Below are positions 7,674-55,831 of a stretch of DNA of 64,000 nt, piece by piece. The notes under the pieces are model-generated. The model made no database searches and was not told the origin of the DNA. It saw only the letters and a program-made list of their open reading frames with translations. The position numbers and the translations under genes are program-made. Position 1 is the first letter of the stretch; every line of letters starts with the position of its first letter. This DNA is from Rhodospirillales bacterium (GTDB lineage: Bacteria; Pseudomonadota; Alphaproteobacteria; MPNO01; UBA2964), in contig JAYOEY010000002.1 in the NCBI GenBank assembly GCA_038116945.1, positions 20,958 to 84,957 on the forward strand, written 5' to 3'.

Positions 7674-9341
7674 ATGCCGGCATCGCGGACGCCCATACAG
7701 AATGCCGACAACGCGTCAGTGCCCGCGCGCAGGAGTTCCGCGCTGAAGGCGCTGCTGACCTCGCCGCAGACCGAATTCGTCATGGAGGCTCATGACGGGC
7801 TGTCGGCGAAAATCGTCGAAGAAGCGGGGTTCAGGGGAATCTGGGCGTCGGGCCTTACGATGTCGGCGGCGCTTGGCGTTCGAGACAGCAACGAGGCGTC
7901 CTGGACGCAGGTTCTGGAAGTCCTTGAGTTCATGGCGGACGCGACATCGATCCCGATTCTGGTGGACGGCGATACGGGGTACGGCAATTTCAACAATGTG
8001 CGCCGGGTGGTCCGCAAGCTGGGCCAGCGGGGCATCGCCGGGATCTGCATCGAGGACAAGCTGTTTCCCAAGACCAACTCTTTTATCGGCGACGGGCAAC
8101 CGCTTGCCGATATCGACGAGTTCTGCGGCAAGATCAAGGCCGGCAAGGACAGCCAGGTCGACGACGATTTCTGCCTGGTTGCCCGCATCGAGGCGCTGAT
8201 TTCCGGACGCGGCATGGTGGAAGCGCTGAAGCGCGCCAAGGCCTATCACGAGGCCGGAGCCGATGCGCTGCTAATCCATTCCAAACAGCGCGACCCCGAG
8301 GAAATTCTCACCTTCCTCGCCGAATGGGGAAATCGCTGCCCGGTGGTGATCGTGCCGACAACCTATTACGACACGCCGACAGACGCGTGGCGCGATGCCG
8401 GCGTGTCGCTGGTCATCTGGGCCAACCATAATCTGCGCGCCTCCATCTCGGCGATGCGGGAGGTGTCGTCGCGGATCGCCCGCGAGCAGTCGCTGGCGGG
8501 GATCGAAAATTCGGTCGCCACCGTGCGGGAGATTTTTCAGATCGCCGGCAACGACGAGCTCGCGGAGGCCGAACGAAAATACCTGCCGGCGACCCCCGAC
8601 GCACCGCATGCGATCGTGCTGGCGGCTTCGCGCGGAGTCGAACTCGGGGCGCTGACCGAGGACCGTCCCAAATGCATGGTCGAAATTCGCGGGCAGCCGC
8701 TGCTGCGGCGGCTGGTCGATACTTTCCACGGCGGCGGGGTGCATGACATCACGGTGGTTCGCGGCTATCGCAAGGAAATGGTGAACCTTCCCTCGATCCG
8801 CGCCATCGACAACGATGCTTACGACAGCACCGGCGAGCTGGCGACGCTGGCCTGCGCGGCCGACCGGCTCGACGACGAAGTGCTGATCGCGTACGGGGAT
8901 ATCCTGTTTCGCCAGCACATTCTCGATCAGATCCGGAACGCGGATGGCGACATCGTGCTGGCGGTGGATGCGCTTTGGCGCGAACGCGATTCCGATCCCG
9001 GATCGCGCCATCGGGATCTGGTGCAGTGCAGCGCGCCGTTCCAGGTCGATTATCTTCAGGATGCTCCGGTATCGCTTCTCCGGATCGCGCCCGATATCGC
9101 CGAAAGCGACATCAACGGCGAGTGGATCGGACTGGCGCTGGCGCGCGAAAAGGGCACGGCCTCGATTCGGGCAGCAATCGCTACGATGCGCGCGGACGGA
9201 TCGCTTGAACGCGCCGGATTGCCCGGACTGTTTTCCCGGCTGATGGCGGATGGCGTCGAAATCGGCGTCGTCTATGTTGCCGGGCAGTGGCTTGATGTCG
9301 ACGATGCCGCCGACCTGAAGGCCGCGGACAGCTTTCTGTAA
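7674..9341 (+). CDS. ppm: phosphoenolpyruvate phosphomutase fused to a C-terminal LicC/PntC-like (phosphonate) cytidylyltransferase domain
   Basis: The N-domain matches PEP mutase motif for motif ([70 protein letters not shown]). The C-domain has nucleotidyltransferase motifs ([48 protein letters not shown]). The ATG at 7674 follows a GGAGAG ribosome-binding site. The track start at 7530 would add 48 aa with no homologous counterpart. Confidence 0.85.
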
Positions 9342-10863: not shown

Positions 10864-12588
10864 CTATTGCAGCTTGTCCGTCGAGGGGGCGCAGGGGCTG
10901 ACACCGCCGTTCGCGGTTCCTCTTCTTCGCGCCAGCGCATCCTTCAGCCGGTGTTCGAATACGGTCGATGCCTCGCGCTGATACAGAACGTTCGTCAACG
11001 TCCGCCAGATTCGTTTCGGGTAGAAGAGATAGCTGATGAGGTAGTTGGTCACCATGAAACCCAAACGATAGATCGCAAGTTCCCGGCGGCCGATCGTCTC
11101 GTTGTGCGTGAGCGGCTTGAGCGATGTAAATTCGCTGTTGAGCGACGTCAGCCCGAGGAAATAGCGGTCGCTCAGCTCAATCACGCCGCTTTCCTGAAGG
11201 TGCGCGAAAATTTCCGTGCCGGGATAGGCGGAATAGATGTTGATCGATGCCTCGTCGACGCCCCTTGCGGCCATCTTGAGCCCGAACCAGACGGTCCGGT
11301 ACACATCGGCGCGCGTTTCGCCCGGAAAACCGATGATCAGGTTGGTCCGAAGCGTCAACCCCAGCCTTCGCGCCGCCATCACCGATTCCGTCAGGCGATC
11401 GAGCGACACCTTTTTCTTGATCAGCTCCAGCGTTCTGGGCGAGCCGCTTTCCGGCGCGTAACACAGATAGGTGCAGCCGGTCTTTTTCAGCAGCCCAAGC
11501 GTCTCCGCATCCAGCGCCTCCGAGCGGGTGCCCGACGGCAGCGACCATTTTACGTTGATGCCTTCGTCCAGCATCCGCTGGCACAGTTCGACGGTCCATT
11601 GTTTCTTGGTGATCGCCGTCAGGTCGTAGAGCTGTATCGACGTGATGTCGTATTCGCGGATGTAATGTTTCATCTCGGCGATGACGTCGTCGATGTCGCG
11701 CAGCAGATATCGCGTCGTCCACATCTGCGCGCTCGAGCAGAAGGTGCACTGAAACGGGCAGCCGCGCGAAATCATCATCGGCATGTCCCGTTCGGTCTGG
11801 ATGCCGAAAGACTTGCCGGCAGACCAGAATTTTTCCAGATAGCCGTTCTGCCAGTGGGGCCACGGAATGTTGTCGACATCCCGGATCCGGGTCAGGCCGA
11901 CGCTTTCCAGAAACTGTCCGTCGGGTCCGATCGTACAGACGCTGGCCAGGTTCGCCGGATCGCTTCCCTCGCGAACGGCCTCGACGATTTCGTAGAAGAC
12001 ATGCTCGCCCTCGCCCAGCGCGATGGCATCCAGCGCCGGGCAGTCGCGCAGCGAATATTCCGGCAGCGCGGTTGCGTGTTCGCCTCCCGCGACCAGAAAA
12101 GCGTCGGGAAAACGCGCGCGAACGGCTTCGATCAGCCGACGGTGTATCGGCCACTCGCCGGAAAACATGGTCGAAAACCCGATGACCCGGGCGTTTCCGG
12201 GGATCATCGCGACGGTCTGTTCGATGGTGATGCCCTGACACTGGTATCCGTCGATTCCCTCCGGGTGCCAGATGACGTTGAGCCCTTCGCCGACCGCATC
12301 GACGATGACCGGTTCATAGCCGCGTTTCTTCAGATAGCCGGCAATGAAAGCCAGCCCGATCGCGGGCGTCGCTTCGTTATTGAAAGCCGCGTAGGTGGAA
12401 AGGATCGGGCCCCGGACCAGCGCCACGCCGAATTCCGCTGCGCCGGCGTCGGCCGATACAGCGCCGACATCTCTCATGATCGGGCGCGGATTGCCGAACT
12501 TGCCGGGCGCGGGCGCGTTCAGCGAGCCCGGATCGGAACCCGGATCGGAAGTCGTGTCGATGTTCGCGGAGCCTGACATTGCAACCAT
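10864..12588 (-). CDS. cobalamin-dependent (class B-like) radical SAM enzyme number 1 (possible start at Met38, nt 12477)
   Basis: N-terminal B12-binding-like region (AIGLAFIAGYLKKRGYEPVIVDA) followed by a radical SAM core with ISRGCPFQCTFCSS (C-x3-C-x2-C). Confidence 0.8.
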   Translation of the reverse strand: MVAMSGSANIDTTSDPGSDPGSLNAPAPGKFGNPRPIMRDVGAVSADAGAAEFGVALVRGPILSTYAAFNNEATPAIGLAFIAGYLKKRGYEPVIVDAVGEGLNVIWHPEGIDGYQCQGITIEQTVAMIPGNARVIGFSTMFSGEWPIHRRLIEAVRARFPDAFLVAGGEHATALPEYSLRDCPALDAIALGEGEHVFYEIVEAVREGSDPANLASVCTIGPDGQFLESVGLTRIRDVDNIPWPHWQNGYLEKFWSAGKSFGIQTERDMPMMISRGCPFQCTFCSSAQMWTTRYLLRDIDDVIAEMKHYIREYDITSIQLYDLTAITKKQWTVELCQRMLDEGINVKWSLPSGTRSEALDAETLGLLKKTGCTYLCYAPESGSPRTLELIKKKVSLDRLTESVMAARRLGLTLRTNLIIGFPGETRADVYRTVWFGLKMAARGVDEASINIYSAYPGTEIFAHLQESGVIELSDRYFLGLTSLNSEFTSLKPLTHNETIGRRELAIYRLGFMVTNYLISYLFYPKRIWRTLTNVLYQREASTVFEHRLKDALARRRGTANGGVSPCAPSTDKLQ

Positions 12589-12767
12589 GATATGTATGGG
12601 GTTCGGATTCAGCAGTAAAGGAATTTTGAATCAAGGGTTTCCGGCTATCCTTGCCGTTTCCGGCGTTCAGCCCTCTATCTGCCGGTGTCCCCATGCCGTT
12701 CCGGGAGATCCCGACGCAGCCGGGCGGTCGCGGGAACGACATAAAATAAGGAAAATAAAGAATATTC

Positions 12768-12832
12768 TTGACGTTCATGGCGCGAACGCTTTAGTGTTCG
12801 TGCCGTGAACAAGATTGTTCAGAACGTGAACG
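12768..12832. promoter_or_regulatory. operator cluster 1: three tandem GTTC-N7-GAAC palindromes, overlapped by a TTGACG -35-like hexamer
   Basis: CGTTCATGGCGCGAACG (12772-12788), TGTTCGTGCCGTGAACA (12795-12811), TGTTCAGAACGTGAACG (12816-12832). Centre-to-centre spacings are 23 and 21 bp. TTGACG at 12768-12773. An AT-rich tract (ATAAAATAAGGAAAATAAAGAATATTC) lies immediately upstream. Confidence 0.6.
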
Positions 12833-12876
12833 TTAGCAATTCGCTTCTTTCGAACGATCGTCAAGCTGCAACGCCC

Positions 12877-13509
12877 ATGACAACGAATACTGTCTCGGAA
12901 GATGAAGCGAAAATAACGCTGGGTCTTCTCAACGCCATCGAGGCGAACAGCAAGGTGACGCAGCGAACCGTCGCCCACGACCTCGGTATCGCGCTCGGGC
13001 TGGCCAACGCTTACCTGAAACGATGCGTTCGCAAGGGGCTCATTAAGGTCCAGCAGGTTCCCGCAAACCGGTACGCCTATTATCTCACGCCGCAGGGTTT
13101 TGCGGAAAAGAGCCGGCTTACGGCCGAATATCTCACCATTTCGCTCAATTTTTTCCGCCGCGCGCGAAACGAATGCGCGGAAGTGTTTCGTCAGTGCGAA
13201 CAGCTTGGTTGGCGGCGGGTCGTTCTCGCCGGTACGGGCGACCTGACGGAAATTGCAACGCTGTGCGCGAATCATGCAGAGATCGAGCTGGTCGGTATCT
13301 ACGATCCCGCCGGGACAGCGGCGGATTTTTCCGGTCTGCGGGTGTCCGACAATCTGGCGGCGCTGGAACCCTTCGACGGCGTGGTCATTACCGCGTTCCG
13401 CAATCCGCAGGAAAGTTTCGATGCGCTGGTCCGGATGATTCCGGCCGCGCGCATCGCCGCGCCGGCGCTCCTCGGAATCTCGCGCGAACCGCCGCAGCTG
13501 ATGGAATAG
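12877..13509 (+). CDS. winged helix-turn-helix transcriptional regulator with a C-terminal Rossmann-like domain (Rex-like architecture)
   Basis: N-terminal wHTH (VTQRTVAHDLGIALGLANAYLKRCVRKGLIKV) and a C-terminal alpha/beta region with a glycine-rich loop (RRVVLAGTGDLTEIA). The track start at 12805 is GTG and overlaps the operator boxes, so the ATG at 12877 is preferred. Confidence 0.6.
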   Translation: MTTNTVSEDEAKITLGLLNAIEANSKVTQRTVAHDLGIALGLANAYLKRCVRKGLIKVQQVPANRYAYYLTPQGFAEKSRLTAEYLTISLNFFRRARNECAEVFRQCEQLGWRRVVLAGTGDLTEIATLCANHAEIELVGIYDPAGTAADFSGLRVSDNLAALEPFDGVVITAFRNPQESFDALVRMIPAARIAAPALLGISREPPQLME

Positions 13510-13512
13510 ACG

Positions 13513-14049
13513 ATGAACGCGTTTCTCGCAGATACGATGGACGGAAGCACCTGCTGGTACGTGGTGCACACCCACGCGCGGGCGGAAGAAACCGCGCAGC
13601 GCAATCTGATCCAGCAGGGTTTCCAGGCGTTTCTGCCGCAATACATGAAAAAGCGCCGGCATGCGCGGCGGACCGACTGGGTAAGCGCGCCGCTGTTTCC
13701 GCGTTACCTGTTCGTCGCGATCGATGTCGCCCGGGCGCGCTGGCGGTCGATATCGTCGACCATCGGCGTTCAGCATCTGATCTGCTGCGGGGAAATGCCG
13801 GTGGCGGTTCCTGAGGCGGTGATCGCGGAGATTCGCGCGCGCATGGATGAAACCGGAATGGTTCCGGTCAGACAGAAAGTACCGTTCCGCAAGGGCGAAA
13901 CGGTACTCGTCACCGGCGGGCCGCTTGCCGACCAGGTCGGGCTGTTCGACTGCGTCAGCGACGAGGAAAGGGTATTCCTTCTGCTCGACATTCTCGGGCG
14001 GCAGGTAAAGGTCAGGGTGCCGCTCGACGCCGTCACGCAATTCGCGTAA
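13513..14049 (+). CDS. NusG paralog (RfaH/UpxY/LoaP-like specialised transcription antiterminator)
   Basis: 178 aa with an NGN domain (WYVVHTHARAEETAQRNLIQQGFQAFLPQY...PLFPRYLFVAID) and a KOW-like C-terminus (GETVLVTGGPLADQVGLF). It is not in a secE/rplK context and its ATG lies 4 nt after the regulator's stop codon. Confidence 0.75.
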   Translation: MNAFLADTMDGSTCWYVVHTHARAEETAQRNLIQQGFQAFLPQYMKKRRHARRTDWVSAPLFPRYLFVAIDVARARWRSISSTIGVQHLICCGEMPVAVPEAVIAEIRARMDETGMVPVRQKVPFRKGETVLVTGGPLADQVGLFDCVSDEERVFLLLDILGRQVKVRVPLDAVTQFA

Positions 14050-14052
14050 CGC

Positions 14053-14065
14053 GGCGCGCGGCGCC
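14053..14065 (+). other. short GC hairpin GGCGC-GCG-GCGCC directly after the NusG-paralog stop (possible pause/attenuator; no U-tract)
   Basis: Perfect 5-bp inverted repeat with a 3-nt loop. Confidence 0.2.
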
Positions 14066-14107
14066 AGAGGCCAGCGCCCACGGGTGAGACATCGGTTTCA
14101 CCCGAAC

Positions 14108-14119
14108 GGTGGTAGCGTG
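14108..14119 (+). promoter_or_regulatory. ops-like element GGTGGTAGCGTG (11/12 match to the E. coli RfaH ops GGCGGTAGCGTG) in the leader of the plus-strand Pse operon
   Basis: On the coding strand, 19 nt upstream of the 14138 ATG and 59 nt downstream of the NusG-paralog stop codon. Confidence 0.5.
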
Positions 14120-14137
14120 GCCAAAATCACCCAAGAC

Positions 14138-14800
14138 ATGCCGCTTGCCGACAACGATAGCTGGCCGCTCAACGAAGACGGCGTGTGGATCGACCTCCGC
14201 GGGAAACCTCGGGAAAGGCCCGGTCCGGTCCTGTTTCTCGATCGCGACGGCGTCATCATTTTCGATGCCGTCTATGTCGGCGATCCCGCGGATGTGGCAA
14301 TTCTGCCGGATGCCGCCCGCATGATCGCAACGGCCAACCGGATGGAAATACCGGTCGCCGTCGTTACGAACCAGTCCGGGATCGACCGGGGATATTTCGG
14401 CTGGTCCGATTTCGATGGCGTGATGAAGCGGATTGCCGACGAGCTGGCGTCCAGGGGCGCCCATCTCGATGCGGTGGCCGCCTGTCCCTTTCATCCCGAT
14501 TTCACGCCGGGCTATGGCGCCATGCACGACGGGTGGCGCAAGCCCGGCGCGATGATGATCCTGACCCTGGCAAAAGAACTCAACGCGGATCCGTCGTCGT
14601 CCTGGATGGTCGGCGATCAGGAAAGCGACATCCTTGCGGCGGCGGCGGCGGGGCTGGGCCATGCGCTTCTGTTGAGTGACGCCGGCGGCGACAGCCGCGC
14701 CGCGCCGGTCGGGCCGTCCGGAACGAAGATCGTGACGGGCAATCTGGCGGGTTTCCTGGACAGCGGGACGGGCTTGTTCGCCAGCGCGAAAACGCGTTAG
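14138..14800 (+). CDS. HAD-family phosphatase, D,D-heptose 1,7-bisphosphate phosphatase (GmhB)/histidinol-phosphatase-like
   Basis: LFLDRDGVII (HAD motif I), VVTNQSG, GWRKPGAMMIL and VGDQESD motifs. The ATG at 14138 is preferred over the GTG at 14084, which would bury the ops-like element in coding sequence. Confidence 0.7.
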   Translation: MPLADNDSWPLNEDGVWIDLRGKPRERPGPVLFLDRDGVIIFDAVYVGDPADVAILPDAARMIATANRMEIPVAVVTNQSGIDRGYFGWSDFDGVMKRIADELASRGAHLDAVAACPFHPDFTPGYGAMHDGWRKPGAMMILTLAKELNADPSSSWMVGDQESDILAAAAAGLGHALLLSDAGGDSRAAPVGPSGTKIVTGNLAGFLDSGTGLFASAKTR

Positions 14801-14811
14801 CGGATCGTGGG

Positions 14812-15675
14812 TCAGTCGACGTCGAGACAGCTTTTCAGACCCGTCGACAGGTCGATCCCGGGTCGCCAGCCCAGCAGGGACTCGGCCTGCCTGGTGTCGG
14901 CAAACACGCATGGCGTGGGATCGTCGTCATCCTGACGCTGGGTGACGACTCCATCCTCTCCGCCGGCGATATCCCGCAGGAGCTGGACGACATCGCCGAT
15001 CCTGGTCGGTTTTCCGGTGCCGATATTGAGAGCCGTCATGGCGCCCGGTCTGGTTACGGCTTTTGCAATGGCATGGGCGACGTCGTCGACGTGAATGAAA
15101 TCCCTGATCGATTCCCGGTTTCTCACCTGTGCTTCGCCTTGGCCGCGAATCGCGCGGATAAGGTAAGGTATAAGGAAATATTCGGACTGGCCGGGCCCGT
15201 AGACATTGAACAGCCGGACAATGGTGCCCCTTACGCCGTGGACTTTCGCGTAATGTCGACAGAGTTCCTCACCCATATGTTTCGTCAAGGGATAGAGCCA
15301 GCGGGGCTCAACGGTGGCCGTCTCGGAAAGCGGTTCGGTCTCGGCGCGGGGCGCGTAGACGCCCGAGGTCGATGCAAAGACGATCGCCGCGCTGTTCCGG
15401 CGACAGGCCTCGAGGGCGTTTGCGAGCCCGGCGACGTTTACCGAAACCGTCTCGCCGGGATTTTCGGGCGCCCCGGACGGCGTCCGGGCGGCAAGGTGAA
15501 CGAGAGCGTCGAAATCGGCGCTGAACGTGTCGCTGTCGCGAACGTCTCCGTCGAGGATTCGAACGGCGGCCTTCTCACGCGACAGAGACCTGCGCACCGC
15601 CCGGCCGATGAAGCCGTTCGCTCCGGTGATGGCGATGATCGGGGCGTCGGTTTTACGGGGTTCGCGGGATGCCAT
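14812..15675 (-). CDS. NAD-dependent epimerase/dehydratase (SDR)
   Basis: IAITGANGFIGRAV Rossmann motif and YPLTK (YxxxK). Confidence 0.7.
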   Translation of the reverse strand: MASREPRKTDAPIIAITGANGFIGRAVRRSLSREKAAVRILDGDVRDSDTFSADFDALVHLAARTPSGAPENPGETVSVNVAGLANALEACRRNSAAIVFASTSGVYAPRAETEPLSETATVEPRWLYPLTKHMGEELCRHYAKVHGVRGTIVRLFNVYGPGQSEYFLIPYLIRAIRGQGEAQVRNRESIRDFIHVDDVAHAIAKAVTRPGAMTALNIGTGKPTRIGDVVQLLRDIAGGEDGVVTQRQDDDDPTPCVFADTRQAESLLGWRPGIDLSTGLKSCLDVD

Positions 15676-21863: not shown

Positions 21864-22481
21864 ATGATCGGCATTCTCGACATCGGGATGGGCAATCTCG
21901 GCTCGGTATGGAACGCGACTTACGAGTCGGGGTTCGATCCCGAGATCGTCATCGATCCGGACGATCTCGACCAGATCGACCACCTCATCCTGCCCGGGGT
22001 CGGCCATTTCGCGACCGCGATGGAAAAACTCTGCGAAATGGGCATGGTCTCGCCGCTCAGGAGCTATGTCGAAAGCGGCCGTCCGCTGCTCGGTCTCTGC
22101 GTCGGCATGCAGGTGCTGGCCACCGAGGGAACGGAAGGCGCCAGGACGCCAGGGCTCGATATCATCGCCGGGACGGTCGACCGACTGCCGGTCAATCCGC
22201 CCTTCCGGGTACCGCATATCGGCTGGAACGCGGTCAGCGCCGTCCGGGATCATCCCGTCCTGGAGCGCATCAAACCTGAACGGGACTTTTACTTCGTCCA
22301 TTCCTACGCGTTCCGTCCGGTGGACGAGGCGAACATCGTGGCAAGAACCGAATACGGCGCGCCGTTTGCATCGATCGTCGGCCGGGCGAACGTACTCGGG
22401 TGCCAGTTCCACCCCGAGAAGAGTCAGGCCAACGGGTTGCGGATCCTGGAAAACTTCTGCCGGTGGGACGGGGTATGCTGA
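21864..22481 (+). CDS. HisH-like glutamine amidotransferase (WbuY-like), copy 1
   Basis: IGILDIGMGNLGSV, LLGLCVGMQVL (catalytic Cys), CQFHPEKS. Confidence 0.85.
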   Translation: MIGILDIGMGNLGSVWNATYESGFDPEIVIDPDDLDQIDHLILPGVGHFATAMEKLCEMGMVSPLRSYVESGRPLLGLCVGMQVLATEGTEGARTPGLDIIAGTVDRLPVNPPFRVPHIGWNAVSAVRDHPVLERIKPERDFYFVHSYAFRPVDEANIVARTEYGAPFASIVGRANVLGCQFHPEKSQANGLRILENFCRWDGVC

Positions 22482-23239
22482 AAAAACGCATCATCGCCAT
22501 CCAGCTCCTGCTCGGGGAACGGCTGGTCAAGACCCGCGAATTCGGCGGTTACCGAGATGTCGGCGATCCCGTAAAAAGCGCCGCCGTCTACAATTCGCAG
22601 CATCTCGACGAGCTGATCCTGCTGAATATCGATCGCGACCGGCGCTCGGCTGACGTTTTCGCCGACTGGCTCAAGGAAATTTCCAAGGTCTGTTTCATGC
22701 CGCTGTCGATCGGCGGCGGCATCACCGGGTTCGACGACGCGGCGTTTCTGATCAAGAACGGCGCCGACAAGGTCGTGGTCAACAGCGCCGCATACCGCGA
22801 CAAGAAGCTTCTTGGAGAAATCGCGAACCGTTTCGGATCGCAGGCAGTCGTTGTCGGCATCGATGTGAAGCGGGACCCCTCGGACGGGCGCATCCGGCTC
22901 TATTCGGATTGCGGCCGAAGCGCCGAGCCGGTCGCGCTCGCCGATCACATCCGTTCCTGCGTCGATGCCGGCGCGGGCGAAATTTTTGTCCAGTCGATCG
23001 ACAATGACGGGGTCATGAAAGGGTTCGATATCCCGCTGATCGCGGAAACGCAGGCGGCGGCCGCCGTACCGGTAATCGGCGCCGGCGGGTCCGGCACCTA
23101 CGAGATGCTCCGCGAGGCCTTTGTCGCGACCGATGTCAGCGCGCTCGCCTGCGGCAGCATGTTCAATTTTACGGACAGCCAGTGGATGCGGGCCAAGGCG
23201 CATCTGACCAATTACGGACTTCCCTTCAAGGCGGTGTGA
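22475..23239 (+). CDS. HisF-like cyclase subunit (WbuZ-like), copy 1
   Basis: MLKKRIIAIQLLLGERLVKTREF and SIGGGITGFDD. Overlaps the upstream gene by ATGCTGA. Confidence 0.85.
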   Translation: MLKKRIIAIQLLLGERLVKTREFGGYRDVGDPVKSAAVYNSQHLDELILLNIDRDRRSADVFADWLKEISKVCFMPLSIGGGITGFDDAAFLIKNGADKVVVNSAAYRDKKLLGEIANRFGSQAVVVGIDVKRDPSDGRIRLYSDCGRSAEPVALADHIRSCVDAGAGEIFVQSIDNDGVMKGFDIPLIAETQAAAAVPVIGAGGSGTYEMLREAFVATDVSALACGSMFNFTDSQWMRAKAHLTNYGLPFKAV

Positions 23240-39464: not shown

Positions 39465-40541
39465 TCATCGCCCGGTCGCCCGTCTGCGTTCAGTTGGCCT
39501 GCAGCGACTTGCCGACAACGTTTCGGAATATTCCGTTTTCAACAGGCGACCGAACCGTTCGCTGTATTTACGGGCGCCGCGCAAGGCGAGGTGGCCGTAA
39601 TCGTAAAAGTCGCCTGGAACAAGCCCCCATCCTGACGGTTCGTCGCGTTGGAGGATCTCGGCATTCCGCAGGCTGGCGGTCTCCGCCTCATAGGCCCGAA
39701 GAAATCCGCTGTGTCGCGCCGCAATGTAATCCAGATATGTCTGGCGCAACGGAACCCTTGTAACGAGAACGCGTACGCCATCCGATCGGGCCAGGTCGAT
39801 AAATCTGCGAAGCGCCCTGAAGAGGTAGCCGTCCTTCGTATAACCGCGCACCAGCCCATCGGCCGTTGCGCCGACCTCCGGGTCCACGTCCGGCCCGGTT
39901 TCCGTTTCGGCAGACCTCCACCTGATACGACCGTCTTCGGTCAGCCAGACGCGGGACGGGTCGTCTCCGGTGAAAATCGAAAGCGTCCGTGTCCAGAGAA
40001 AGGACTGGATCAGGGCGCGCGCGTCGTATGTCCGGAAAATCCATCCCGCCAGCAGGCTGAGCCTAAACTGCGACGGAAATTCGTTCAGCCTCTCGCCTAG
40101 GGTCGCGAAGCGCCGGTCCCGATGGGTCGGCGAACTTTCTCCGTTGAGATACCAGTCTTCTATACCGACAACGAAGATGCAGCTGTGTTTAAGCCGGTCC
40201 CTGTTTCGCTGGTAAAACCGCACCGCATCGAAAGGGTTGCCGGTCGTGATTCCCAAATTCATTACCGACGCTGGCGCGAGTCCCGCGGCTTTCGCGAGGC
40301 GTCGCGGCATTATGGCGTCACGCATGCGGCTCGATCCGAAAAAAACGACCGCCGGTCTGGCCGATTTGGCGATGACATGCCGTTCGAGCGCATCGAAGGC
40401 GCCGGTTGCCGATTGCGGCGTTGCGGACCAGATCCAGCCCGACCGGACCGCCAGAAACTCCACGGCCAGCAAAAGAGCCAGCGCCAGAAGACCGGCAGCG
40501 GTCAGCAGTCGCTTAAAACTGGAAATAAATGAACGGAACAT
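39465..40541 (-). CDS. membrane-anchored AlgX/AlgJ/DltD-like SGNH-fold protein (O-acyltransferase partner)
   Basis: N-terminal signal-anchor (LLTAAGLLALALLLAV), VVFFGSSRM (GDS-like block) and DYGHL (DxxH). It overlaps the 3' end of the MBOAT gene. First ATG at 40541; a TTG at 40565 is also possible. Confidence 0.5.
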   Translation of the reverse strand: MFRSFISSFKRLLTAAGLLALALLLAVEFLAVRSGWIWSATPQSATGAFDALERHVIAKSARPAVVFFGSSRMRDAIMPRRLAKAAGLAPASVMNLGITTGNPFDAVRFYQRNRDRLKHSCIFVVGIEDWYLNGESSPTHRDRRFATLGERLNEFPSQFRLSLLAGWIFRTYDARALIQSFLWTRTLSIFTGDDPSRVWLTEDGRIRWRSAETETGPDVDPEVGATADGLVRGYTKDGYLFRALRRFIDLARSDGVRVLVTRVPLRQTYLDYIAARHSGFLRAYEAETASLRNAEILQRDEPSGWGLVPGDFYDYGHLALRGARKYSERFGRLLKTEYSETLSASRCRPTERRRATGR

Positions 40542-41910
40542 CGGCGCCGCTGAAAGCAATGACAAGAACGATCAGGCCCGCATAAACGAATCCGCGGGGC
40601 ACCCAGTGCCAGGTGCGGATCAGCGTGTCTTCTTCGTTTTCCCTCTGACACAGATCAATGGCTGCAACGGCGATCAGGCAGATCGCGGCGAGCAGCGCTG
40701 TAATGAAATCGATCCCCGGCCGGAAACTCAACAGACCGCTGAAGAACGCTGCGGCCTGATCGAATGTCTGGGCGCGGAAAAATATCCAGGCCATGCCGAC
40801 TACCGTCATGGTCAGGGTCCACCCCAGAACCCGCGCGCCCCATCCCGGCTCGGGGCCGGGTTCGCCCCGCCAGCGACGCCACGCCCTGTTTGCCGCCAGC
40901 GCAAGACCGTGGATGCCGCCCCAGACCACAAAGGTCCAGGCTGCGCCGTGCCATAAGCCGCCGAGAAGCATCGTCGCGAGGAGATTGCCGTATGTCCGCA
41001 TCGGGCCGCGCCGGTTCCCGCCGAGAGGAATATAAAGGTAGTCTCGAAGCCAGAACGACAGGGATATGTGCCAGCGGCGCCAGAAATCCGTAATGGACGT
41101 CGCGAAATAGGGCCGTCTGAAATTCACGATGAGGTCGATCCCCAGCATGCGCGCGAGACCGCGCGCCATATCGGAATATCCCGCGAAATCGCCATAGATC
41201 TGCAGTCCGAACAGAAAGGCGCCGACGGCAAGGTCGATGCTGGAATGGGATGCCGGGTTCGCGAAGATGCGATCGACATGCGCCGCTGCCGTATCGGCGA
41301 TGACGACTTTCCGGGCGAGACCGATCAAGACAAGCACGAATCCGGACCGCAGCCTTTCCGCCGTTATCGGGGCGGGTCTGAGGATCTGCGGCACCAGGTG
41401 CTGCGCCCGTTCGATCGGGCCGGCCACAAGCTGGGGGAAGAAGCTCACATAGGAGGCGTACAGGGTCCAGTCCCGGATAGGCTGCATTCGGCCGCGATAG
41501 ACGTCGATCGTGTAGGCCATCGACTGAAAGGTGAAAAAGCTTATTCCAATGGGCAGGAGGATGCTCAATGTGGGCCGGTGAGCCGCCAGGCCCAGCGATT
41601 CGACGAGGACAATCGCGTTGTCCAGAAAGAAGTCAAAATATTTGAAGAATGCCAGGACGGTGAGGTCAGTTGCGACGCTTGCCACGAGCCAGAGGCGCCG
41701 GTTTGCCCCTGGACGACTCATCAGGCGGCCGCACGCCCAGTCCAGGGTAATCGTAAAAAGGATCAGCCCCAGGAAACGCCAGTCCCACCATCCGTAGAAC
41801 AACAGCGACGCCGGAAGCAGCACGAAACGCCGCCGTTCGACCGGCACGCTGGCTGAGAGCGCAAGCACGACAACGAAAAAGAACAGGAAGACGAGAGAGT
41901 TAAACTGCAT
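40513..41910 (-). CDS. MBOAT-family membrane O-acyltransferase (AlgI/DltB-like)
   Basis: Polytopic membrane protein with the conserved MBOAT His (WRRWHISLSFWLRDYLYIPLGG). Confidence 0.85.
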   Translation of the reverse strand: MQFNSLVFLFFFVVVLALSASVPVERRRFVLLPASLLFYGWWDWRFLGLILFTITLDWACGRLMSRPGANRRLWLVASVATDLTVLAFFKYFDFFLDNAIVLVESLGLAAHRPTLSILLPIGISFFTFQSMAYTIDVYRGRMQPIRDWTLYASYVSFFPQLVAGPIERAQHLVPQILRPAPITAERLRSGFVLVLIGLARKVVIADTAAAHVDRIFANPASHSSIDLAVGAFLFGLQIYGDFAGYSDMARGLARMLGIDLIVNFRRPYFATSITDFWRRWHISLSFWLRDYLYIPLGGNRRGPMRTYGNLLATMLLGGLWHGAAWTFVVWGGIHGLALAANRAWRRWRGEPGPEPGWGARVLGWTLTMTVVGMAWIFFRAQTFDQAAAFFSGLLSFRPGIDFITALLAAICLIAVAAIDLCQRENEEDTLIRTWHWVPRGFVYAGLIVLVIAFSGADVPFIYFQF

Positions 41911-41952
41911 TCCGCGGCTGTCGATACGCCCAGAGACGACGAGTGTTTGCGA

Positions 41953-41992
41953 CGTTCATTGCCTGAACAATACATTGTTCGCGGCGTGAACA
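41953..41992. promoter_or_regulatory. operator cluster 2: CGTTCATTGCCTGAACA + TGTTCGCGGCGTGAACA
   Basis: Same two-box architecture and 23 bp spacing as clusters 1 and 3. Located 43 bp upstream of the MBOAT start codon (minus strand). Confidence 0.55.
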
Positions 41993-42273: not shown

Positions 42274-44370
42274 TCAGCCGCCGGTATTGACGCCGATGCC
42301 GGCGGCCTGCCGCTTGAACATCCGGGCGAAAATGAACGTGCTGCCCCTCAGGAAGGTGACGAACTTGTCGAAGGTCCGGATATCCAGAAGGTGCTCAAGC
42401 AATTTTCTCGGGCGCAGGTAAAAGCGCCGGAAGGCATATTTCTGCAATTCCAGAATGCGTTCGTCGGACAGGCTTTCGAGATGATGCACAGGCCGCGTGT
42501 AGACCCCGTACATGGAATAGTCCCGGCTGTCGATCAGCCCTTTCTCGTCGAGCTGGTAATACACCTCGCTGCCGGGAAACGGTTTCAAAATCAGAAACTT
42601 GGCAAATTTGACATCGAGCTCGACGGCGAACTCGATGGTTTCCTTTATGCTTTCCTCGTCGTCGCCCGGCAGGCCGATCATGAAGAAGCCCCAGGTATCG
42701 AGCCCCAGACCCTTTGCGGTATCGACGGCTTTGCGGACGCGATCCTTGTTGATTCCCTTCTTGATCACCTTGAGGACCCGTTCGCTGCCCGACTCGATCC
42801 CGAATCCGACATTGGTCAGGCCGACATCGCGCAGCAGGGTCAGGATTTCCTCGTTGACCATATCGGCACGCAGCCCATTGGCTACCTGAAGTCGCAGCTT
42901 GTACGGCTCCTGTTTCAGGAGCGTACAGAACTCCCTGACGAAAGGTTTGTTGGCGGTGATGACGTCGTCGAGAAAATGAATTTCCTTTACGCCGTATGTC
43001 TCCACCAGATGCCGAATCTCCTCGATAACGTTCTGGGGAGACCGGAACCGCGTCCGGCGGCCGAAAATGTTCTTGGTCTGGCAATAGGTGCACTGACCGG
43101 GGCATCCGCGCGACACCATCACCGGCGCCACTGGCAGAAACTCCGCGTCGGCCGGCTCGTACTTGTCCAGGTGATTGATCAGATGCATCGCGGGAGGCGG
43201 ATAATCGTCCAGTTCGGGCGCAAGGCTCCGCGCGCCGGTCGCAAGGATTTCTCCATCGTCCGTACGCGTTACGATGCCCTTGATGCGCGAGATGTCGCGA
43301 TCGTTGGCCATGATCGCGTCGACCAGCTCGACCGCAGTGCACTCGGCTTCGCCCACCGCGATATAGTCGAGACAGGTCTCCTTGGCGCAATTCATCGGGT
43401 CGATGGTGGCGTGAATACCGCCAAGAATCGTGCGAATCGCCGGGTTCGCCTTCTTGGCTTCGGAAGCAATGGCGACCGCATTCGGGAATGTCGGCGTCGT
43501 TGCGGTGATGCCCAGGACATCGAAGCGACCTTCCGTCACGCGCTGCACCACTTCCGGCAGATTGATGCCGTCCGCATCCTGATCAATGACCTCGACGTAA
43601 TGCCCGGCCTTTTCGAGCATCGCCGCGATCCACAACACGCCCAGCGCCGGATAGGCCGGCGGGATTTCCACCCCGTATACGTTGAACTGAGAAGGGATCA
43701 CCAGCAAGACGCGTCCGCAAACTCTGTCGCGGCCAAGAATCGACCCGACGGTTTCCTCTTCGGGCAAAGAAGCCGGCGCAACCGGCGTATTCAGCCATAC
43801 GTCGGAAAACCCCTGACCTTCCACCGTCTTCTTGGTGTAGGAGGCAATCACTTCCGACATCTTCGCCTGGCGGTCGAAAATCGCGCGATTGACGGATACG
43901 CCCGCCGGTGCCGCGGTGGCGGCGTCGAACTCTGGATTCTCCGCGATCGCCAGCACCGGCGCGAGGCTGTCGATTGCCGCCGCGAAATGGGCGGATCTGA
44001 CCCGCTGAAACGGATCCGCATCCGAAGAGCCGGTCGCCCCGATCAGGACAGTGCGCACCTTGGGGAAATGATAAATACAGCGCTGAGCGAGCAGGGCGGG
44101 ATCGTAACCCGGCGCGGTTGCGTCCAGCAGGAAAACGACATCGGGCGCGCCCAGTTCGTTGTCCAGCATGAACATCGCGTCTTCGATGGTTTGCTCGACC
44201 GCATCGATTTCGATCAACTCATGGTCAATGTCCGCAGACCGGAGCGCATCGCGCAACGGCGGAAAGTCATTTTCCCCGCCGGTTGCCGGCGCGCGAGGCA
44301 CCAGTGCGACGATGCCGCCCTCGGTCGAACCCAGGGAGCGTGAAACCTGTCGTGTTTCGGTGGAATCCAT
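42274..44370 (-). CDS. cobalamin-dependent radical SAM enzyme number 2, with an extra N-terminal alpha/beta domain of about 220 aa
   Basis: VSRGCPGQCTYCQ (C-x3-C-x2-C) and B12-domain-like LLVIPSQ...GVLWIAAMLEKAGHYVEVID beginning around residue 236. The first ATG is at 44370; the track start at 44409 is TTG. Confidence 0.8.
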   Translation of the reverse strand: MDSTETRQVSRSLGSTEGGIVALVPRAPATGGENDFPPLRDALRSADIDHELIEIDAVEQTIEDAMFMLDNELGAPDVVFLLDATAPGYDPALLAQRCIYHFPKVRTVLIGATGSSDADPFQRVRSAHFAAAIDSLAPVLAIAENPEFDAATAAPAGVSVNRAIFDRQAKMSEVIASYTKKTVEGQGFSDVWLNTPVAPASLPEEETVGSILGRDRVCGRVLLVIPSQFNVYGVEIPPAYPALGVLWIAAMLEKAGHYVEVIDQDADGINLPEVVQRVTEGRFDVLGITATTPTFPNAVAIASEAKKANPAIRTILGGIHATIDPMNCAKETCLDYIAVGEAECTAVELVDAIMANDRDISRIKGIVTRTDDGEILATGARSLAPELDDYPPPAMHLINHLDKYEPADAEFLPVAPVMVSRGCPGQCTYCQTKNIFGRRTRFRSPQNVIEEIRHLVETYGVKEIHFLDDVITANKPFVREFCTLLKQEPYKLRLQVANGLRADMVNEEILTLLRDVGLTNVGFGIESGSERVLKVIKKGINKDRVRKAVDTAKGLGLDTWGFFMIGLPGDDEESIKETIEFAVELDVKFAKFLILKPFPGSEVYYQLDEKGLIDSRDYSMYGVYTRPVHHLESLSDERILELQKYAFRRFYLRPRKLLEHLLDIRTFDKFVTFLRGSTFIFARMFKRQAAGIGVNTGG

Positions 44371-44606
44371 TAAAGCCCCATTTCCGTTGGGCGTTACCGA
44401 ATCAAACAAGTCCCCGGCGGTCGTTCCGGGCGCCGACGGGGAATGAACTTCCGCCTGCCGACGGGGCTTGTCCGCCCGATTCCAGTATGAAATCCTGCCC
44501 TTTAGACAAAACGTTATGTAGTCTGCGCCCCCGACTCGATCAACCCTTAACTTGTCGACGCCTCGCCGATTGACCGTCGGGCGCCGGCCGGACCGCCTGC
44601 TGAACC

Positions 44607-49120: not shown

Positions 49121-49164
49121 TTGACGTTCACCGTTTGAACGATATATTGTTCGTGCCGTGAACA
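49121..49164. promoter_or_regulatory. operator cluster 3 with sigma70-like promoter: TTGACG-16-TATATT, CGTTCACCGTTTGAACG + TGTTCGTGCCGTGAACA
   Basis: The second box (49148-49164) is identical over 17/17 nt to box 12795-12811 and overlaps the -10-like TATATT (49143-49148). TTGACG at 49121-49126 overlaps the first box. The site lies between the divergent GNAT (minus) and radical SAM number 3 (plus) genes. Confidence 0.55.
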
Positions 49165-49529
49165 TGTCAATTCTGGCGATGATCGGCGGTTGCGACAAGA
49201 CCTGTAACACAGCGGGTCCGGATCGACCGCGACAGTCGGCGGGAGTGGCATTAACAGCGGATTTCCGCGGGTGCGGGAACGCGTGGCCGTCTCCGGCGGG
49301 CGGCGAATTTCTCCCGCCCCCCGAATCGGCTAAACGGGCAATATAGGCAAGCGGCGGTTTCTGCTTACCTTGCCGTCGGCACCGGAGCGCTTGTGCGCCG
49401 GAAATGCGATGCCAACGGGTGGACCTGTTTCACCCGAAGTACGGTAGTGTGCCTCATCGCAGGGTTGACATTCCCGACGATGCGCCGCCCGATATCTGTC
49501 AACATGTTTCAAGGTCACCAGCCGACGAC

Positions 49530-54416: not shown

Positions 54417-55199
54417 ATGGCCAATATCCGTCTCATCCCGCGTCTGGATGTCAAGGCTCCCAACCTGATCAAGGGAGTCCATCTCGAGGGGCTGCGGGTA
54501 GTTGGCTCGCCGGGGGAATTTGCGCGGCGATACTATGAAGAGGGCGCGGACGAACTGCTCTACATGGATATCGTGGCGAGCCTGTACGGGCGCAACAATC
54601 TGGAGCAGATCGTGTCGGATACCGCGCGCGACGTGTTCATCCCGATGTGCGTCGGCGGCGGCATCCGGTCGGTCGACGACGCCACCCGCCTGCTGCGCGC
54701 CGGCGCCGACAAGGTGGCGATCAATACCGCCGCAATCGCCAACCCTGGTTTAATAGAAACGCTGTCCCGGCGCTTCGGGTCGCAGTGCATCGTTCTGTCC
54801 ATCGAAGCCAAACAAACGCGGGCGGGCGGCTGGGAGGCCTTTACGGACAACGGGCGCGAAAAGACCGGTCGCGACGCCATCGCCTGGGCGATCGAAGCCG
54901 CCGAACGAGGCGTCGGCGAAATACTCGTCACCTCGGTCGACCGGGAAGGGACGCGAAAGGGCTTCGATATCGCGCTTGCCGACGCCATCGCCGGCGCGGT
55001 GCCGGTGCCGGTAATCGCAAGCGGCGGCATGGGTTCGGTCGAACATCTTGTCGAAGTCGTCCGCAACGGTCATGTCGACGCCGTCGCGATGGCGGATGTC
55101 CTTCACTACGAGCGGCTGAGCCTGAAGGAAATCAGACGCGCGGCGCTGGATGCAGGGCTGGCCGTCAGGCCGGAAGCGCCCGCCGCGCTGGCCTCATGA
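54417..55199 (+). CDS. HisF-like cyclase subunit, copy 2
   Basis: IRLIPRLDVKAPNLIKGVHLEG and CVGGGIRSVDD. Confidence 0.8.
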   Translation: MANIRLIPRLDVKAPNLIKGVHLEGLRVVGSPGEFARRYYEEGADELLYMDIVASLYGRNNLEQIVSDTARDVFIPMCVGGGIRSVDDATRLLRAGADKVAINTAAIANPGLIETLSRRFGSQCIVLSIEAKQTRAGGWEAFTDNGREKTGRDAIAWAIEAAERGVGEILVTSVDREGTRKGFDIALADAIAGAVPVPVIASGGMGSVEHLVEVVRNGHVDAVAMADVLHYERLSLKEIRRAALDAGLAVRPEAPAALAS

Positions 55200-55831
55200 C
55201 GAAAATTGCCGTCATCGATTACGGCGCAGGGAACCTGTTCAGCATTGCGCGCGCGCTCGAACATTGCGGCGCGACGCCGGTATTTACCGCCGATCCCGAT
55301 TCCCTTCGAAAGGCCGACAGGGCCATCCTTCCCGGCGTCGGCGCGTTCGGCGACGGCATGGCGGCCCTGCGACAGGCAAGCCTGTCAGCCGCGATTGCAG
55401 AGCTTGCCGCGGCGGGGAACCCGGTTCTCGGAATCTGCCTCGGCATGCAGATGCTGTTCGATGCCAGCGAGGAGTTCGGCGACCATACCGGTCTGGCGCT
55501 GATCCCGGGCCGGGTATTGCCGCTGCCGCGGACCCGGGCCGACGGCGCGCCGCAGAAGGTGCCGCATATCGGCTGGAACGATCTGTGCGAACCGGCTCCC
55601 GGTCGTTGGGCGGGCACTCCGCTGGCAGCCATCGCGCCGGGAACATCGGCCTATTTCGTTCACTCCTTCGCCGCCGTGCCAGCAGACGGCCGCGACGCGA
55701 TCGCGACATGCGTCTATGGCGGCCACGCGATTACCGCCGCCGTGCAAAGGGACAATGTCTGCGGCTGCCAGTTCCATCCGGAGCGCAGCGGTCCGGCGGG
55801 CCTGTCGATCATCCGGCAGTTTCTGGCCTGA
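55196..55831 (+). CDS. HisH-like glutamine amidotransferase, copy 2
   Basis: IAVIDYGAGNLFSI, VLGICLGMQML, CQFHPERS. The ATG at 55196 overlaps the upstream TGA. The track's 54647 start is a spurious extension. Confidence 0.8.
   Translation: MTKIAVIDYGAGNLFSIARALEHCGATPVFTADPDSLRKADRAILPGVGAFGDGMAALRQASLSAAIAELAAAGNPVLGICLGMQMLFDASEEFGDHTGLALIPGRVLPLPRTRADGAPQKVPHIGWNDLCEPAPGRWAGTPLAAIAPGTSAYFVHSFAAVPADGRDAIATCVYGGHAITAAVQRDNVCGCQFHPERSGPAGLSIIRQFLA

Follow-up and report, generated by a model that had tools for sequence, protein, structure and literature searches.

Paired palindromes in putative promoters of an alphaproteobacterial glycan locus, very probably the sites of an adjacent wHTH regulator, and a hairpin-ops element beyond a co-encoded RfaH-like gene

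In Bacteroides, UpxY and UpxZ are encoded at the head of capsule operons (PMC7593976), an arrangement that resembles the locus described here in that the glycan operon opens with two genes whose products control it, one for a NusG paralog and one for a small partner regulator. An RfaH cluster, CL4, is said in one sentence of Wang et al. 2020 (PMC7593976) to be "associated with an HTH transcriptional regulator"; the CL4 pair is probably the same gene pair as the one analysed here, and neither operators nor promoter architecture nor the placement of ops is given for it in that paper. Another likeness is to the MarR-type autorepressors, including TIGR04176, the "MarR family EPS-associated transcriptional regulator", with which our regulator has in common an N-terminal wHTH, putative palindromic operators over its own -35, -10 and +1, and a setting in polysaccharide loci. 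The GTTCA-N5-TGAAC motif and the regulator were not found described in a literature search, and the regulator and its sites are apparently a pair new to the literature. Judged from sequence comparison, this pair is conserved across Alphaproteobacteria. The two genes in question are:

12877-13509, plus strand: wHTH regulator of 210 aa, with an N-terminal HTH_24 and a C-terminal Rossmann-like domain; the proposed binder of the boxes
13513-14049, plus strand: RfaH-like NusG paralog of 178 aa (Pfam NusG), co-transcribed with the regulator

The window, that is, the whole stretch of 64 kb that was analysed, holds seven matches to GTTC-N7-GAAC, all of them within three sites that are intergenic on a GC3-based gene map, and paired 23 bp apart; only site 1 carries a third box besides the pair. 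The boxes and their cores, which as dyads are listed without a strand, are:

12772-12788: site 1 box 1, CGTTCATGGCGCGAACG; core GTTCATGGCGCGAAC at 12773-12787, within the promoter spacer
12795-12811: site 1 box 2, TGTTCGTGCCGTGAACA; core GTTCGTGCCGTGAAC at 12796-12810, 23 bp from box 1 and over the predicted transcription start
12816-12832: site 1 box 3, TGTTCAGAACGTGAACG; core GTTCAGAACGTGAAC at 12817-12831, 21 bp past box 2, in the predicted leader
41953-41969: site 2 box 1; core GTTCATTGCCTGAAC at 41954-41968, a perfect match to GTTCA-N5-TGAAC
41976-41992: site 2 box 2; core GTTCGCGGCGTGAAC at 41977-41991
49125-49141: site 3 box 1; core GTTCACCGTTTGAAC at 49126-49140
49148-49164: site 3 box 2; core GTTCGTGCCGTGAAC at 49149-49163, the same sequence as in site 1 box 2

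A preliminary description of this DNA had proposed the two-box composite at 12772-12811, 41953-41992 and 49125-49164, the third box 21 bp further on at site 1, the intergenic position of all three sites and the identity of box 2 over 17/17 nt between sites 1 and 3; coordinates, sequences and placement are all confirmed, and the same box 2 recurs in the own-promoter of an orthologous locus (L002). In shuffled sequence GTTC-N7-GAAC is expected 1.15 times on average and at most 4 times per shuffle, and none of 100 shuffles reaches seven. Likewise, GTTCA-N5-TGAAC with at most one mismatch has eight matches in the window against 0.7 expected, seven of them in the three intergenic sites and one intragenic, at 13768. 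In the repeat finder the 45-nt module appears as family D3, the sole intergenic family among the 20 listed for the window, several of the others being paralogous coding segments.

Sites 1 and 3 combine the boxes with promoter-like elements:

12768-12773, plus strand: site 1 -35 hexamer TTGACG, overlapping or abutting box 1
12792-12797, plus strand: site 1 -10-like TAGTGT (TAnnnT), 18 nt after TTGACG and overlapping the start of box 2
49121-49126, plus strand: site 3 -35 hexamer TTGACG, overlapping box 1
49145-49150, plus strand: site 3 -10-like TATTGT, with an 18-nt spacer
49143-49148, plus strand: site 3 alternative -10 TATATT, with a 16-nt spacer

At site 3 a promoter scan calls both TATTGT (9/12 matches) and TATATT (10/12), whereas TAGTGT at site 1, with only 3/6 matches, receives no call against the E. 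coli consensus. TATATT, put forward earlier as the site 3 -10, thus stands as an alternative called by the scan, but the conserved TAnnnT corresponds to TATTGT there and to TAGTGT at site 1. The TTGACG over box 1, also part of the preliminary description, holds well beyond the window: in logo and sequences alike, a cTTGAC abutting box 1 is near-universal among the orthologous promoters. The consensus of the orthologous box 1 is GTTCA-N5-TGAAC; its fifth base is A in 100% and its eleventh T in 91-95%. In the unbiased genome set the linker has T as its fifth base in 94% and A as its sixth in 91%. A TAnnnT -10 begins 4 nt past box 1. Box 2 overlaps the end of this -10 and covers the likely start site. 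Boxes 1 and 2 are 23 bp apart in 32 loci and in a further 4 that carry a third box, and 22 bp apart in 21 loci, so that the two-helical-turn spacing noted at the outset is conserved in orthologs, and additional boxes at 21-24 bp lengthen the array, with triple-box promoters also at L002, L003, L023, L059 and L072. Across the orthologous modules no variation is seen in the half-sites, in contrast to the inner 5-7 nt, which vary freely. The half-sites of GTTCA-N5-TGAAC lie 10 bp apart, a spacing suited to a winged-helix dimer. Taken together, the geometry of promoter and boxes suggests an autorepressor.

Both genes flanking site 2 are on the minus strand (rSAM2, 42274-44409; MBOAT, 40513-41910), and the site 2 composite is therefore inverted with respect to its presumed target, unlike those at sites 1 and 3. 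The box pair, earlier taken for an operator of the MBOAT operon, lies 43-82 nt upstream of the MBOAT ATG (41910, minus strand). Site 2 has no convincing promoter: none of sigma-70-like type is called there on either strand. A plus-strand promoter of the L040/L050/L052 type, with TTGACA 5-6 nt ahead of box 1, was considered and does not fit there.

What binds these boxes is strongly indicated by comparison across genomes. In 80/80 orthologous loci, which range from 43 to 72% in GC, the 450 bp ahead of the regulator gene contain boxes. These upstream stretches, roughly 36 kb in all, have 185 near-perfect boxes, whereas the other 1.22 Mb of the loci has 34; about 14 of the 34 can be recognised as secondary modules, being either paired or linked to TTGAC. 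In the opposite direction, a motif-first metagenome scan finds the regulator gene directly downstream in 66 of 71 usable contigs (93%); at least two of the remaining five are operator promoters followed by a hairpin and ops element. The position of the module is fixed relative to one gene family in well over 100 unrelated genomes and metagenome contigs. Given that boxes are also present in Chelatococcus pCO-6, where the regulator homolog is 47% identical and the next gene is gmd, and in L041, both of them cases in which an adjacent rfaH-like gene is missing, the boxes track the regulator and not the NusG paralog. The paired palindromes are very probably DNA binding sites of the adjacent wHTH regulator, and footprinting in both directions supports the local regulon and the autoregulation proposed in the preliminary description; the assignment of box to regulator is one of guilt by association, though a very tight one. 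The link to B12-radical-SAM genes made in that description is seen in the window, but few of the 80 loci have homologs of rSAM1, rSAM2 or rSAM3 close to the regulator gene, and we reject a radical-SAM-specific regulon as a general rule.

The regulator belongs to a large family, with at least 7,992 homologs in a protein search and 419 stretches in species-representative genomes, where the closest relative is 81% identical and comes from a Rhodobacterales MAG; the exact protein is found in Logan on short contigs only, and the plasmid collection yields the Chelatococcus homologs alone. HTH_24 is detected above its Pfam cut-off (3.7e-9), Pfam at E up to 10 returns HTH_24 with weak MarR_2 and TrmB, and no Pfam family covers the C-terminal Rossmann-like domain. 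The best NCBIfam match is TIGR04176 over residues 12-106 (E 2.7e-18), and its 66 bits do not reach the cut-off of 88 for membership. As for an autoregulated wHTH protein in general, the wHTH domain is present and the dyads of its own promoter are conserved in every orthologous locus. The wHTH segment LGIALGLANAYLKRC...PANRYAYYLTP is nearly invariant among orthologs, which parallels the invariance of the half-sites, and the AF2 model is confident for the C-domain only; given a wHTH pLDDT below 55, we make no structural statement on DNA recognition. The top Foldseek match of the model is WbaP, a weak one (E 2.9e-4, TM 0.35).

Is the regulator a member of the Rex family, as the term Rex-like in the preliminary description implied? 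The loose architecture of wHTH plus Rossmann-like domain stands, but neither PF06971 nor PF02629 is found by Pfam at E up to 10. Nor is GxGxxG conserved at its second glycine, the motif at that position being LAGxGDL or LAGxSDL. The Rex box has the consensus TTGTGAA-N4-TTCACAA, whereas the conserved dyad here is GTTCA-N5-TGAAC, and we reject both Rex membership and a Rex operator.

The gene next after the regulator gene, in 78/80 loci, is the rfaH-like one. Among NCBIfam families its product scores best with RfaH (TIGR01955), at 125.8 bits under a cut-off of 144.5, ahead of UpxY (84), NusG (59) and LoaP (49.5 bits), and its closest solved relative in the PDB is E. coli RfaH (1.9e-14). Beyond this gene, and in the leader at site 3, we observe elements that the preliminary description did not contain and that form a candidate layer for the co-encoded RfaH-like protein:

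14081-14104, plus strand: hairpin CGGGTGA-N10-TCACCCG, directly 5' of the ops-like element
14108-14119, plus strand: ops-like GGTGGTAGCGTG, 11/12 against E. coli ops GGCGGTAGCGTG, between the rfaH-like and the biosynthetic genes
49416-49436, plus strand: site 3 leader hairpin CGGGTGG-N7-TCACCCG, downstream of the site 3 promoter
49440-49451, plus strand: site 3 leader ops-like TACGGTAGTGTG, 9/12 against E. coli ops with the GGTAG core intact

Because a hairpin and ops lie within the site 3 leader, the start of rSAM3 is probably the ATG at 49531 and not that at 49404. The hairpin stem is conserved in orthologs with compensatory changes, and hairpin plus ops are found in 55/80 genome loci, mostly just past the rfaH-like gene and roughly 960-1330 nt beyond the nearest upstream box; GCGGTAGCGTG is conserved in most loci, after the rfaH-like gene or in leaders. 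An operator promoter followed by hairpin and ops occurs also at L004, L009, L040, L050, L052, L065, L128 and L142. Site 2 has no ops element. Rfam has no family that matches at the hairpin-ops elements, either in the window at the gathering threshold or in 12500-14300 at E up to 10. The presence of hairpin and ops besides the operator promoters points to control in two layers, initiation and elongation.

A question arises, by what means would the regulator act on these promoters? We consider it likely that each composite is a promoter of the sigma-70 type into which operators for the 12877-13509 regulator are built, that dimers of the regulator would occlude the polymerase, and that a second, ops-based layer follows. 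Dimers seated on roughly the same face of the helix would block RNA polymerase, and the regulator would thereby repress its own operon, comprising the regulator, the rfaH-like gene and about 22 kb of glycan biosynthesis genes, as well as, from site 3, the rSAM3 operon; the MBOAT/PhyH/ABC operon may be its target at site 2. Derepression would presumably come about through a ligand of the Rossmann-like C-terminal domain. The transcripts would bear the hairpin and ops-like element, either past the rfaH-like gene or within the leader, and the co-encoded RfaH paralog would load at ops, allowing processive transcription of the long operons.

The sign of this regulation is read from the position of the boxes alone, and the 18-nt spacer with its internal dyad could also suit a promoter-remodelling activator. 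The same protein and sites might then work as an activator or dual switch in the manner of MerR, realigning the spacer or recruiting polymerase, a view that fits a box 1 centred in the spacer, where MerR-type operators sit, a spacer one nucleotide above the optimum and the weak -10 of site 1. We regard it as unlikely: the -35 is a perfect, near-universal cTTGAC, which is unusual for activator-dependent promoters, boxes 2 and 3 lie over the start site and early leader while upstream boxes overlap the -35, and the HTH is not of the MerR family, no MerR match being found in the regulator by Pfam at E up to 10. MerR promoters have spacers of 19-20 nt, and the spacer here is 18 nt. It is more improbable still that some other factor, global or SOS-type, binds the boxes and that the wHTH gene is merely adjacent. 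The GTTC and GAAC tetramers do recall LexA-type boxes; yet the LexA box of Alphaproteobacteria has the form of a direct repeat, GTTC-N7-GTTC, and every box here is an inverted repeat, GTTC-N7-GAAC, which upholds the earlier statement that these are not LexA boxes. A foreign factor would also have to account for boxes in all 80 regulator promoters of very divergent genomes, for a regulator gene at 93% of the matches found by pattern only, and for the rarity of boxes elsewhere in 1.2 Mb.

We give slightly less credence still to the view that the palindromes are nucleic-acid structures, whether RfaH recruitment or pause signals, RNA hairpins, terminators or attenuators. Site 1 RNA folds strongly (-34.3 kcal/mol, z = -6.8), a terminator scan flags single boxes with T-rich linkers behind them, and an RfaH paralog is encoded next door. 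The strong predicted fold is, in fact, peculiar to site 1 among the three sites, and box 1 lies between -35 and -10 and would hence not be transcribed. Compensatory variation is seen neither within nor between boxes: in 159 modules the inner complementarity of box 1 and box 2 amounts to 2.99 matching positions against 2.91 with shuffled partners (p = 0.17). The boxes have no U-tracts, they occur also where a neighbouring rfaH-like gene is missing, no Rfam family matches (whole window at the gathering threshold; 12500-14300 at E up to 10), and the separate conserved hairpin and ops already explain RfaH recruitment. As terminators the flagged boxes were rejected: they are devoid of U-tracts, and their strand or their position does not suit the genes. 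Finally, a 45-nt module present three times in 64 kb, with box 2 the same over 17 nt at sites 1 and 3, might be taken for a dispersed REP- or MITE-like repeat or a recent local duplication that has no regulatory role. This is scarcely credible given that the likeness among the three sites ends at the module edges, that the module keeps its fixed place beside one gene family in so many unrelated genomes and contigs, and that the half-sites stay invariant while the inner bases drift.

Returning to promoters with built-in operators, which we favour, we tentatively put forward a further idea, in which we place appreciably less trust: regulator, RfaH paralog, operator promoter and hairpin/ops may form a self-contained and portable cassette for the expression of surface-glycan clusters in Alphaproteobacteria, with two checkpoints, in which a metabolite-sensing repressor gates initiation and the RfaH made only after the gate opens loads at an ops just past its own gene. 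If true, this would be a feed-forward design so far undescribed in RfaH systems. The metabolite could be a nucleotide-sugar or a molecule linked to a lipid carrier, the C-domain of the regulator being similar in fold to small Rossmann-like domains that accompany WbaP and UDP-sugar enzymes. Regardless, the analysis supplies a large regulator family, one that has no characterised member and that heads O-antigen, capsule and EPS clusters across Alphaproteobacteria, with a concrete motif, a promoter layout and a probable role, and by means of the motif regulon members become predictable from sequence. The joining of initiation and elongation control in one cassette is a testable model, for which Hwanghaeella grinnelliae Gri0909 and two Chelatococcus strains offer cultured hosts. 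RfaH signalling through a near-canonical ops would reach well beyond Enterobacteria, and the gene for the RfaH-like protein is located in cis to the operon on which it would act.

How does the locus differ from the systems that it resembles? Compared with TIGR04176, the regulator is about twice as long and has the extra Rossmann-like C-terminal domain, and in contrast to Rex its context is glycan synthesis, not respiration or fermentation. Unlike UpxZ, an inhibitor of other UpxY proteins, the partner of the NusG paralog is here a DNA-binding-type wHTH protein with putative operators of its own; moreover, the regulator gene comes first and the recruitment signal is ops-like. With the enterobacterial RfaH and ops/JUMPStart system the locus has in common a neighbour that matches RfaH best and leaders in which an element, GCGGTAGCGTG, that agrees with ops GGCGGTAGCGTG at 11/12 positions precedes long polysaccharide operons. 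In contrast to that system, the rfaH-like gene is part of the operon that it would act on and comes before its own ops, its partner is a regulator that would act at the promoter, and a covarying hairpin precedes the ops.

Re-reading the DNA, we find that the box sequences and coordinates, the 23-bp spacing from box 1 to box 2 at all three sites, the identity of box 2 between sites 1 and 3 (17/17, though its inner bases are weakly constrained family-wide) and the third box at site 1 are exactly as the preliminary description gave them. The boxes, each a GTTC-N7-GAAC palindrome, and their neighbours are these:

12772-12788, site 1, box 1, CGTTCATGGCGCGAACG
between box 1 and box 2, site 1 linker, 6 nt, CTTTAG
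12795-12811, site 1, box 2, TGTTCGTGCCGTGAACA
12816-12832, site 1, box 3, TGTTCAGAACGTGAACG
41953-41969 and 41976-41992, site 2 boxes
49125-49141 and 49148-49164, site 3 boxes
10864-12588, minus strand, B12-radical-SAM gene left of site 1, with a CysNC-like gene beyond
12877-13509, plus strand, wHTH protein of 210 aa (the regulator), first gene of the array right of site 1
13513-14049, plus strand, NusG paralog (rfaH-like gene), second gene of that array
14812-15675, minus strand, epimerase gene within that array
42274-44409 and 40513-41910, both minus strand, the second B12-radical-SAM gene (rSAM2) and the MBOAT gene flanking site 2
flanking site 3, a minus-strand GNAT gene and another plus-strand array, headed by the third B12-radical-SAM gene (rSAM3)

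A gene map based on third-position GC content and Pfam places all three sites between genes, as had been claimed. Apart from the epimerase gene, the site 1 array is a co-directional run of sugar-modifying and glycosyltransferase genes up to ~35.5 kb. Each plus-strand glycan array also carries one of two paralogous copies (22083-22792 and 54636-55456) of a HisH/HisF-like (imidazole glycerol phosphate synthase-like) gene pair, seen as repeat families D4, D19 and D20. Whether the box motif is equally dense in coding DNA had been raised as a test of its being an operator; in the window, GTTC-N7-GAAC occurs seven times, always within the three sites and never outside them, where shuffled sequence gives 1.15 on average and never more than 4. 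The sharper core GTTCA-N5-TGAAC, with at most one mismatch, matches eight times where 0.7 are expected, seven times in the intergenic sites and once within a gene. Repeat finding groups the 45-nt modules into one family of three copies, the sole intergenic one on our gene map among the 20 families shown, and similarity among the sites stops at the module borders.

The regulator belongs to a large, well-conserved family, and in an alignment of homologs the wHTH segment is nearly invariant. Its link to the boxes was examined in both directions. From regulator to motif, 80 loci encoding relatives were taken from species-representative genomes of 43%-72% GC, nearly all alphaproteobacterial MAGs (Rhodospirillales, Hyphomicrobiales, Rhodobacterales, Thalassospiraceae), with one cultured strain, Hwanghaeella grinnelliae. 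All 80 carry GTTC-N7-GAAC boxes, mostly pairs or triplets, in the 450 bp that precede the regulator gene, so that the co-conservation at orthologous loci proposed as a check is borne out. With at most one mismatch, GTTCA-N5-TGAAC occurs 185 times in the ~36 kb of upstream regions of these loci and 34 times in the other 1.22 Mb. About 14 of these 34 distant boxes are recognisable secondary modules (box pairs or TTGAC-linked boxes); five further ones, perfect or near-perfect (e.g. GTTCATCGCGTGAAC), lie inside the regulator coding sequence of one clade, at +244 to +277 over conserved FFR..RE codons (L059, L066, L067, L069 and L072), and are probably a coincidence of coding constraint. From motif to regulator, metagenome contigs were scanned with the DNA pattern TTGAC-GTTCA-N5-TGAAC-N4-TA-N2-GTTC alone; at least 120 stretches matched, 80 loci were obtained and 71 of them had at least 350 nt downstream. 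Among the matches listed, a regulator homolog is the next gene downstream in 66 of the 71. Of the other five, at least two (L128 and L142) have the promoter, then a hairpin with an ops element (the RfaH recruitment element of E. coli), then biosynthetic genes, and are therefore equivalents of site 3. The architecture and its conservation are thus established at the level of sequence.

A consensus -35 always directly adjoins box 1 (cTTGAC|GTTCA). All modules have A at box 1 position 5, and 91-95% have T at position 11. After a gap of four nucleotides box 1 is followed by T and A (conserved at 94% and 91% in the unbiased genome set); run on into the start of box 2, these spell TAnnnT with a linker of either 7 or 8 nt, as in TAGTGT (site 1) and TATTGT (site 3). 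The spacer that separates TTGACG from this hexamer is 18 nt. The boxes are 23 bp apart in 32 loci (plus four with a third box) and 22 bp apart in 21; several lineages have extra boxes 21-24 bp upstream or downstream. Box 2 would span roughly -9 to +7. An E. coli-consensus scan calls the site 3 promoter, as TTGACG-16-TATATT (10/12) or 18-TATTGT (9/12), and does not call that of site 1, where the -10 matches at 3/6 only.

What, then, recognises the boxes? As a single strand, the site 1 composite (12768-12836) would form a very stable hairpin (-34.3 kcal/mol, z = -6.8), as might be expected of an RNA or single-stranded signal. This stability comes from a chance complementarity there between the inner bases of boxes 1 and 2, one that is not conserved over 159 distinct modules (2.99 of 7 positions vs 2.91 for shuffled partners, p = 0.17). 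Given that the 5-bp half-sites, 10 bp apart, are invariant (save that roughly half of the modules have GTTCG as the left one of box 2), that the inner bases are free, that complementarity is not in excess and that box 1 precedes the -10, the data indicate double-stranded DNA sites for a protein dimer and not an RNA or single-stranded signal. The boxes go with the wHTH gene and not with the NusG paralog: locus L041 keeps them without an adjacent paralog, and on plasmid pCO-6 of the cultured strain Chelatococcus sp. CO-6 (NZ_CP012399.1) a 47%-identical regulator homolog in an O-antigen-type cluster is followed by gmd, with no rfaH-like gene adjoining, no hairpin with ops within 18 kb, and two perfect boxes at 8743-8784 (GTTCACGGCGTGAAC-N12-GTTCACGCCGTGAAC), the second abutted by TTGAC. 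The same homolog is found on the C. daeguensis plasmid NZ_CP018096.1. Self-regulation by the wHTH protein through the boxes is therefore the economical reading, and the earlier proposal of an adjacent autoregulator gains support from the boxes at every locus, from the regulator's recovery among the pattern matches listed and from boxes without an rfaH-like gene. Because the -35 is consensus and the operators occupy the spacer and cover the start site, we infer repression; a MerR-like activating mode at the same boxes is possible.

The protein itself had been called Rex-like: Pfam finds no Rex domain even at E up to 10, and the likeness to Rex goes no further than a loose parallel in layout, with no membership of that family. 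Pfam reports HTH_24 only, and the best NCBIfam match, TIGR04176 ("MarR family EPS-associated regulator"; 66 bits vs a cut-off of 88), is limited to the N-terminal half. A search for solved structures found none close by sequence. The AF2 model is confident for residues from about 100 to 205, a Rossmann-like alpha/beta domain, and poor for the wHTH; of the putative dinucleotide-binding motif the first glycine alone is invariant in the homolog alignment.

In 78 of the 80 loci the rfaH-like gene comes after the regulator gene, and the stop codon of the first gene often overlaps the start codon of the second. The best family of the NusG paralog is RfaH (125.8 bits vs a cut-off of 144.5) and its best solved relative E. 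coli RfaH. Of the 80 genome loci, 55 gave a detectable hairpin with ops, usually just 3' of the rfaH-like gene, at ~+1160 to +1260 relative to the start of the regulator. It has the form GGGTGA-loop-TCACCCGGACTGC followed by GGTAGCGTG; the stem, GGGTGA-loop-TCACCC and often extended to GCAGTCC...GGACTGC, shows compensatory changes (at position -4 from GGTAG, G-C in 44 sequences, C-G in 15, A-T in 4). Read jointly, hairpin end and GGTAGCGTG give GCGGTAGCGTG, 11/12 against E. coli ops GGCGGTAGCGTG. The window has two copies, neither matched in Rfam:

14081-14119, GGTGGTAGCGTG, 11/12, between the rfaH-like and HAD genes
49416-49451, TACGGTAGTGTG, 9/12, ~280 nt downstream of site 3

The longest-ORF starts of the HAD gene (14084) and rSAM3 (49404) would put these inside coding sequence; the starts are therefore probably ATG 14138 and ATG 49531 (MKIFLADL...). 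Likewise, secondary operator promoters in other genomes (L004, L009, L040, L050, L052, L065) have a hairpin with ops 70-110 nt downstream, and the divergent promoters of L018, L019, L025 and L026 are arranged alike. At the ops-contact positions of E. coli RfaH, which we take to be K10, H20, R23 and R73, the paralog has H, N, Q and I, yet the ops-like DNA is almost identical to that of E. coli.

Site 2 differs. Its boxes precede the MBOAT start codon by 43-82 nt, where they had been placed; the composite is plus-oriented as at sites 1 and 3 and thus inverted relative to its presumed minus-strand target. Both boxes are present at 23 bp (41948-41992), the plus-strand hexamers are degenerate (GCGACG and CATTGT), and the minus strand offers only an in-register TATTGT without a -35. 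No promoter was found on either strand, the E. coli-consensus scan being negative, and no ops nearby. Site 2 may be an operator-only roadblock within the rSAM2-to-MBOAT transcript.

We infer the following order of events, and with it binding to the boxes, the direction of control, the ligand and the loading of the paralog. A strong promoter would be kept closed by the wHTH protein on phased dyads; upon its release by some signal, the regulator and the RfaH paralog would be made first. The paralog could then load at the ops that lies a short way past its own gene and, in trans, at the site 3 leader, and carry polymerase through the long glycan operons.

No paper that we found in the searchable literature describes the box motif or the regulator. 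The paper of Wang et al. (2020; PMC7593976), which mentions an HTH-regulator neighbour of RfaH cluster CL4, gives no operator and no ops placement. Nothing in the searchable literature thus appears to describe the family of the regulator, its boxes or their arrangement in cis with rfaH and ops. As kinds of mechanism, promoter operators of dyad form and the pairing of RfaH with ops are both known, and the conserved element here is near-canonical to the ops of E. coli RfaH.
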